Assembly: GCF_024502345.1 (NCBI RefSeq)
Contig: NZ_JALDNN010000002.1
Reading direction: 5' to 3' (one strand)
DNA from: Escherichia coli
Lineage (GTDB): Bacteria > Pseudomonadota > Gammaproteobacteria > Enterobacterales > Enterobacteriaceae
Length of the DNA: 64,000 nt
Positions 30,825 through 31,580 of the stretch are shown in pieces; position 1 is the stretch's first letter; each line of letters begins with the position of its first letter. The position numbers and the translations under genes were made by a program. The notes beneath the pieces are model-generated. The model searched no databases. It was not told the DNA's origin and saw only the letters and a program-made list of their open reading frames with translations.

Positions 30825-31250
30825 TCACTCTTGCAGCAATCCAGCCTTTACCCGAAGGATAGTCTGGCGGGTGGTATTAAATTCCCGGGCAATAGCACTG
30901 ATACTGATGCCAGCATTTAGGCGCTCTGTCACTGTTTGCTTTTGTTCCTCGCTCAGGATGGGAGGGCGACCGAAGCGTTTTCCAGCCGCTTTTGCCCTCG
31001 CAATACCTGAATGCGTTCGCTCAAGCAGCAAATCCCGCTCAAACTCCGCTACAGCAGAAATTACCTGCATAGTCATTTTTCCGGCCGGACTGGTCAAGTC
31101 AACGCCTCCGAGTGCGAGACAATGAACGCGAATATCTAAAGCCGCCAGTTGCTCTACTGTTTTTCGGATATCCATCGCATTACGACCCAGACGGTCAAGT
31201 TTGGTGACAATCAGTACATCCCCATTTTCCATGCGATCTAGCAACCGGAT
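30825..31250 (-). pseudogene. Serine recombinase (resolvase/invertase) lacking the catalytic N-terminus
   Basis: Conserved ..[19 protein letters not shown].. and C-terminal HTH; no YARVSTxxQ segment in the upstream frame. Confidence 0.7.
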
Positions 31251-31257
31251 AAATCCG

Positions 31258-31580
31258 GTATTCGCGTACACTGCCTCGCGCTGGGTGGCGTGGACCTCAC
31301 CAGCGCGGCCGGAAAGATGACCATGCAGGTCATTTCGGCTGTGGCTGAGTTTGAAAAGGACCTGCTGATTGAACGCACGCATTCCGGCCTGGCAAGGGCT
31401 AGGGCAGCAGGCAAACGGTTTGGCCGGCCGCCGGCGCTTAACCAGGAACAGCGGCAGGCAGCGCTTGAACAACTGAAAGCAGGTGCCAGTATCAGCGCCA
31501 TTGCCCGCGAGTTTGGGACCTCACGACAAACCATCATGCGCCTGCGTGGCGATGCAGTCAGCCCGGAGTTACCAGATTGA
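31258..31580 (+). pseudogene. Second serine recombinase fragment (C-terminal about 105 codons), head-to-head with the first
   Basis: Encodes [57 protein letters not shown]..., paralogous to the minus-strand fragment. Confidence 0.7.

Follow-up and report, generated by a model that had tools for sequence, protein, structure and literature searches.

Two different plasmid resolvase genes, here called A and B, are fused head to head in a 64-kb stretch of Escherichia coli DNA (64,000 nucleotides; hereafter the window), at a junction, J1, whose only sequence common to both parents is the 6-bp motif ATCCGG. Because its breakpoints lie at non-equivalent codons, and neither in a res site nor at the end of an insertion sequence (IS), J1 is, on a three-way comparison with intact A and B, an illegitimate, microhomology-mediated joint. 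The two remnants, A' and B', are best regarded as a pair of pseudogenes forming an inert scar. J1 is an ordinary rearrangement scar, or pseudogene scar, in a mosaic mcr-10 plasmid and not a working system.

Two resolvase remnants and the joint between them

In the sequence and its list of open reading frames (ORFs), a minus-strand resolvase frame ends at 30825 and a plus-strand one at 31580. Pfam and sequence comparison place both remnants in the small serine recombinase family by descent. The Resolvase profile (PF00239, 145 positions) is matched from position 51 to 144 by A' (30828-31271) and from 93 to 144 by B' (31254-31577), whereas the intact parents cover positions 1-144 and carry the motif CRVSTLEQ. 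Both remnants retain the HTH_7 DNA-binding domain (PF02796; E = 3e-14 in A', 1e-9 in B'). What is missing from A' is codons 1-50, and with them the catalytic Ser of the RVST motif; B' lacks the entire catalytic core up to the E-helix region. With the catalytic-serine region gone, neither A' nor B' is predicted to be able to catalyse recombination. The remnants are 79% identical in amino-acid sequence over 96 residues (E = 3e-57), with the block ALGGVDLTS(P/A) in both. A repeat search resolved the DNA into an inverted repeat of two 301-nt arms (30853-31153 and 31240-31540) that are 70% complementary and 86 nt apart.

These results bear out most of the initial annotation, which had described two 5'-truncated, paralogous serine-recombinase genes abutting head to head, noted the shared protein block, placed the junction at about 31250 and held both copies to be catalytically inactive. 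Its description of B' as a C-terminal fragment also stands, but its count of about 105 codons falls short of the 108 that are kept. It had further allowed that a sequencing frameshift might conceal an intact N-terminal segment; no N-terminus could be recovered, and the DNA beyond each breakpoint is the other gene. A 40-nt probe from the 5' end of A, tried as a search for a hidden A N-terminus, had no match in the window at up to three mismatches.

At the joint itself, antisense A at codon 51 passes through ATCCGG into sense B at codon 90, so that the breakpoints lie 150 and 270 nt inside the respective coding sequences. Parent A reads ...GGATAAATCCGG|GGCGTTCGC, with ATCCGG followed by GGCGTTCGC; the window reads ...GGATAAATCCGGTATTCGCGTACAC across the joint; and parent B reads ...GGCAGCATCCGG|TATTCGCGTACAC, with GCAGC preceding ATCCGG. 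The copy in A forms the right arm of a short palindrome, CCGGAT-AA-ATCCGG. Both flanks are collinear with independent intact genes: A' differs from its parent (NZ_CP101012.1, L002 6126-6559) by a single mismatch, with 433 of 434 nt identical, and B' matches its own (NZ_CP072951.1, L005 6995-7322) at 328 of 328 nt. Window positions 30700-31258 are 100% identical to many plasmids with an intact gene A. Direct reading of 31225-31290 against both parents revealed no IS end, target-site duplication, res or site-specific core, and the closest IS is 1.7 kb off.

Coordinates, strands and defining properties of J1 and the features around it in the window
Feature	Position	Strand	Description
A' (remnant of resolvase A)	30825-31258	-	Codons 51/52-194 and stop kept; parent WP_008502231.1, 194 aa
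J1	31253-31258		ATCCGG in both parents
B' (remnant of resolvase B)	31254-31580	+	Codons 91-198 and stop kept; parent WP_016247550.1, 198 aa
Imperfect inverted repeat	30853-31540		Homologous 3' parts of A' and B'
51-aa and 330-aa hypothetical ORFs	31771-32967	+	Native downstream neighbours of B
ISKpn26 copy	32968-34163	-	Left flank B-context (330-aa ORF), right flank DUF2254/BCCT block
res site I, GTCCGAAACCG-AA-CGATTACGTAC	38614-38637	+	Adjoins 122-aa ORF; right half is resX

The truncation is already known in part, as RefSeq labels B' 'incomplete; missing N-terminus' and so flags it as a partial gene. A' is presented differently: PGAP annotates it as an intact 148-aa 'recombinase family protein' (WP_370464783.1; 30825-31271, minus strand) with a GTG start at 31271. 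The first four to five codons of this coding sequence (CDS) are antisense B sequence, and read against both parents the GTG start is an annotation artefact of the fusion. Annotators should thus be warned that a truncated gene is being called intact. Because PGAP annotates a complete 148-aa CDS, it is nevertheless conceivable that A', with its E-helix and HTH, might be expressed as a catalytically dead DNA- or res-binding protein. A promoter scan detected nothing sigma-70-like above chance upstream of either remnant.

Intact parents and plasmid context

Both parental genes presumed by the initial annotation were found intact, with their res sites, in related plasmids. Full-length A and B match the structures of Gin invertase and gamma-delta/Tn3 resolvase (E = 1e-23 to 1e-27), and their RVST serine motifs align; upstream of each gene is a three-subsite, res-like region of about 110 bp (located in L002, L005, L009 and L016). 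Next to gene A is an OsmC/TetR/CMD/thioredoxin/alkene-reductase/DsbA redox module found widely in Klebsiella and Enterobacter plasmids. The res region of A, resA, adjoins a 122-aa ORF, an IS1 remnant, a BCCT transporter gene, a DUF2254 gene and ISKpn26, and the DUF2254/BCCT block is upstream of intact A in most plasmids. In the Raoultella plasmid pWLK-101716 (L012, NZ_CP038275.1) the whole DsbA-to-OsmC-A module occurs twice, in inverted orientation, each time with an intact A gene; the module itself has therefore been duplicated and rearranged in nature.

Gene B adjoins parA-parB-umuDC in IncF-like conjugative plasmids, a layout that fits a backbone multimer-resolution gene, as which we infer it to act. 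Downstream of intact B, a 51-aa and then a 330-aa ORF follow in the same order in L004, L005 and L016; an NCBIfam search with the 330-aa ORF gave no Pfam-independent family. As these native neighbours also follow B', the DNA to the right of J1 is the plasmid context native to B, and window positions 31253-34168 correspond to L005 6995-9910 at 99.7% identity.

The missing halves of the two genes are not elsewhere in the window. In BLASTN and TBLASTN searches of all 64 kb with the full genes and their res sites, only the two remnants matched: the 5' sequences of A and B, resA and resB were absent, with the sole exception of the shared left half of site I, which lies 7 kb away at 38614. Neither A' nor B' has a cognate res beside it, although the intact parents each have theirs upstream. 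The complete 62.6-kb J1 plasmid pEC81-mcr10 likewise lacks the 5' halves, resA and resB. The window holds no intact relative of A or B; its only other serine-recombinase gene (55446-55994, minus strand; about 36% identical to A and B) overlaps or abuts an IS26 copy at its 5' end and is annotated as a 219-aa recombinase in plasmid pI9455333_MCR10.

From left to right, the window carries OsmC(-), A'(-)|B'(+), the 51-aa and 330-aa ORFs, ISKpn26, DUF2254(-), BCCT(-), the IS1 remnant, the 122-aa ORF(+), a res region, IS5708, a truncated mrkJ, mrkF to mrkA(-), several IS elements, a xerC-type recombinase gene and mcr-10.1. The closest plasmid, pI9455333_MCR10, is 99.9% identical over 32994-59833, and mapping from its annotation puts the xerC-type tyrosine recombinase gene at about 50736-51731 and mcr-10.1, a 539-aa ORF starting MPVLFRMRV..., at about 52098-53717. 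Five ISKpn26-like copies (IS5 family, 1196 bp; 1410-2605, 6001-7195, 19602-20797, 32968-34163 and 61091-62286) share 92-100% identity. In most copies the two 4-bp flanks do not match, a pattern that indicates repeated IS-IS recombination. The copy at 32968-34163 combines the B-context on one side with the usually A-associated DUF2254/BCCT flank on the other, a pairing present in only nine PLSDB records, all with J1.

Further right, a compact unit (38052-40162) resembles a non-autonomous Tn3-family element with no transposase or resolvase gene of its own. It begins with a 38-bp inverted repeat (IR; GGGGTCCGCTTGGAAAAAGGAAATTATCCTACGCTAAG, 38052-38089); within it are the 122-aa ORF (38196-38564) and a res-like region of three subsites, of which site I comes first. 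On its right side, a second Tn3-like IR (38716-38752) is separated by a 9-bp spacer from the inverted counterpart of the 38-bp IR (34/38 identical), which ends at 40162. IS5708 (IS110 family, about 38769-40124) splits this right-hand IR between CTTAACG and TAGGATAA, and pEC81-mcr10 preserves the empty site (L001 16040-16100); IS4321/IS5075-type elements target the IRs of Tn21-family transposons in the same way. The c-di-GMP phosphodiesterase gene mrkJ (40162-40590) has lost its 5' part, cut off precisely where the IR ends on the outside, and the minus-strand type 3 fimbrial cluster mrkABCDF follows it. The IncX5 plasmid pT5282-CTXM and an IncR plasmid carry the mini-element too. Its flanks in the window (ACTTA/CAGAA) form no 5-bp duplication, and its present position is therefore not the result of a simple insertion.

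Normally the 122-aa ORF lies upstream of resA-A, but in the window its site I carries resX and neither resA nor resB. Comparison of the site I joints (window 38614-38637; L002 6800-6830; L009 19350-19380; L005 6612-6640) revealed one left half, GTCCGAAACCG, joined to three right halves and to different downstream genes, with the central dinucleotides AA in resX, GT in resA and AC in resB; GT and AC are reverse complements. In the alignment, the window, L002, L009 and L006 share one sequence as far as GTCCGAAACCG and differ from the central dinucleotide on. Such a break in identity exactly at the central dinucleotide is a clear footprint of resolvase crossovers shuffling plasmid modules.

Origin of the junction

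We favour a history in which J1 is the inert scar of a single illegitimate event, a slippage deletion between divergent A and B genes, and consider this mechanism, which we infer, somewhat more likely than not. A(-) and B(+) would have lain divergently on one fused replicon, forming an unstable long quasi-palindrome. A slipped-strand, RecA-independent deletion between two ATCCGG copies would then have removed both 5' halves, both res sites and the intervening DNA.

The main competitor, which we regard as possible though doubtful, is an illegitimate inversion whose other end was later lost. Homologous recombination between two ISKpn26 copies would have fused a parent-B with a parent-A plasmid, giving the order resB-B-51aa-330aa-ISKpn26-DUF2254-BCCT-IS1 remnant-122aa-resA-A-OsmC, in which the two genes are directly oriented and roughly 8 kb apart. 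An inversion from B codon 90 to A codon 51 would then have followed, for example by a template switch across a replication fork at the ATCCGG/CCGGAT palindrome, yielding J1 and a reciprocal joint of the two N-terminal parts (A-N|B-N), the latter being replaced at or near res site I by the mini-element and mrk module. Plasmids of both parental configurations are abundant, just as the model demands, the ISKpn26 copy with B-context and A-module flanks is confined to J1 plasmids, and the palindrome at the A breakpoint is a plausible site for strand switching. The model also predicts the orientation, relative to A', of the block beyond B' (122-aa ORF, IS1 remnant, BCCT, DUF2254 and ISKpn26), which is inverted in most J1 plasmids including the window and counts against the deletion.

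Deletion is nonetheless favoured over inversion with later loss of the other end, because one illegitimate joint suffices, where the inversion needs two simultaneous ones plus a later replacement. It is favoured, too, because the 5' halves, resA and resB are missing from both the window and the complete pEC81-mcr10, and because the reciprocal junction was not found: a synthetic query of A-N and antisense B-N covered at most 51% of any PLSDB record, and the exact 31-mer of the predicted junction was absent from the GTDB representative genomes and the JGI metagenomes. A further reason is that the 122-aa ORF of the window belongs to a small intact element that has a res of its own, resX, and not resA. 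Since the mini-element and mrk block also occur together in a plasmid without J1 (CP026720.1), that block need not postdate an inversion. The orientation of the block is, moreover, a confounded guide, because in the J1 plasmid pKAM546_1 the DUF2254-to-mrkA block is reversed relative to the window and lies between two inverted ISKpn26 copies, which points to IS-mediated inversion around J1. It does count against the deletion that no plasmid carrying intact A and B divergently turned up in the collections searched: a synthetic head-to-head query for an intact B(-)-resB/resA-A(+) arrangement covered at most 60% of any record.

Two further clues to the ancestral arrangement were pursued and set aside. 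ISKpn26 target duplications were uninformative about the original flank pairing, as TTAG/TTAG occurs in two incompatible pairings, and an uninterrupted ISKpn26 site, with the 330-aa ORF joined either to DUF2254 or to the mrkA flank, was absent from PLSDB. A single inversion with endpoints at J1 and res site I (38625) was rejected on paper, since the joints of the implied ancestor would be non-native at both ends.

A resolvase reaction of the wrong polarity might have prepared the ground for the deletion, although we think this improbable. Because the central dinucleotides GT and AC are reverse complements, resA and resB would, it is suggested, religate only in antiparallel alignment. An antiparallel resA x resB exchange could have preceded the deletion and set the genes head to head, placing B(-) and A(+) back to back across a symmetric hybrid res; the resulting quasi-palindrome of roughly 1.3 kb would then have been trimmed by an ATCCGG slippage deletion of about 0.65 kb, leaving J1. 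Searches for the two products that such an exchange predicts found neither: one is the head-to-head arrangement searched for above, and the other (122-aa ORF, half site I, GT, reversed B upstream flank) had a best coverage of 54%.

That J1 is the direct product of a resolvase, or of homologous exchange between the two paralogues or their res sites, is very unlikely. Such crossovers do shuffle modules in these plasmids, as the three right halves joined to the 122-aa-ORF half of site I attest, but they would be expected to leave in-register chimeras or hybrid res sites and not two truncated tails. The initial annotation had proposed recombination between two inverted, res-proximal resolvase genes or a failed inversion, an explanation that does not agree with breakpoints within coding sequence, at non-equivalent codons and with only 6 bp in common. 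Finally, an assembly or sequencing artefact, or a programmed switch offering alternative recombinase C-termini, is scarcely credible, although the inverted-repeat geometry could cause mis-assembly and bears a superficial likeness to invertible segments, since 15 complete plasmids, assembled independently and differing in laboratory, host and country, have an identical J1 that keeps its orientation even where neighbouring DNA is rearranged, while the two 5' ends face each other, so that a constant N-terminal exon could read into neither arm, and the arms are only 70% identical with no pair of crossover sites.

Distribution of J1 and comparison with known systems

The 1,051-bp stretch spanning J1 is present in 14 independently assembled PLSDB plasmids, at 100% identity in 13 and 99.9% in one, and J1 recurs in one further E. 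coli RefSeq plasmid, for a total of at least 15. The hosts comprise at least seven species: E. coli, K. michiganensis, C. braakii and four or five Enterobacter, among them E. cloacae, E. hormaechei, E. roggenkampii and E. ludwigii (species or complex members). This recurrence of the same junction across plasmids and species means that J1 is real, not a sequencing error, and, judging by its constant sequence, of single origin; its product would then have spread through plasmid transfer and module exchange. J1 was absent from the GTDB species representatives, and the titles and abstracts of the matches listed in literature searches on mcr-10, ISKpn26 and resolvase contained no mention of it.

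The biological weight of J1 is little. Its unique 35-nt marker (GCAACCGGATAAATCCGGTATTCGCGTACACTGCC) can, however, serve as a tracer for one lineage of plasmid segment, a roughly 14-kb stretch associated with the redox module, mrk and mcr-10 in Enterobacter, Escherichia, Klebsiella and Citrobacter. The fused plasmids are left without the A and B resolvases and their res sites, that is, with both resolution systems gone, and this loss may have locked a cointegrate in place.

Among known systems, the invertible segments of the Hin/Gin/Pin type share with J1 an inverted repeat associated with serine-recombinase sequence. They differ in that the window has no intact invertase and no pair of hix/gix-type crossover sites, the repeat arms being decayed coding sequence. 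Nor do both orientations occur among relatives, as they would for a switch: J1 has one orientation and one sequence in 15/15 plasmids, and the local inversions of pKAM546_1 are bounded by ISKpn26 copies and not by recombinase remnants.

The intact parents share the full PF00239 and HTH_7 architecture of small serine recombinases such as gamma-delta/Tn3 resolvase (PDB 1GDT, 5CY1) and Gin (PDB 4M6F), and their res half-sites (GTCCGAAA...) presumably resemble gamma-delta res. In gamma-delta resolvase the nucleophilic serine is Ser10 of the RVST motif. Compared with these enzymes, A' is without profile positions 1-50 and B' without positions 1-92, the nucleophilic serine is gone and no cognate res is nearby. 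Intact B also shares the layout of plasmid multimer-resolution systems, of which RK2 ParA/res, a backbone resolvase and res beside partition genes, is an example: it lies next to parA-parB in IncF-like plasmids, with res upstream. In the window, by comparison, this module is destroyed, as only the last 108 B codons remain and the par genes are not adjacent to B'.

J1 resembles the illegitimate, short-homology deletion or rearrangement junctions of mosaic resistance plasmids, with which it shares collinear flanks, few shared bases, no mobile-element ends and clonal inheritance. Unlike the usual scars of this kind, its partners are paralogues of one family in opposite orientation, and the scar therefore looks like a designed inverted repeat.
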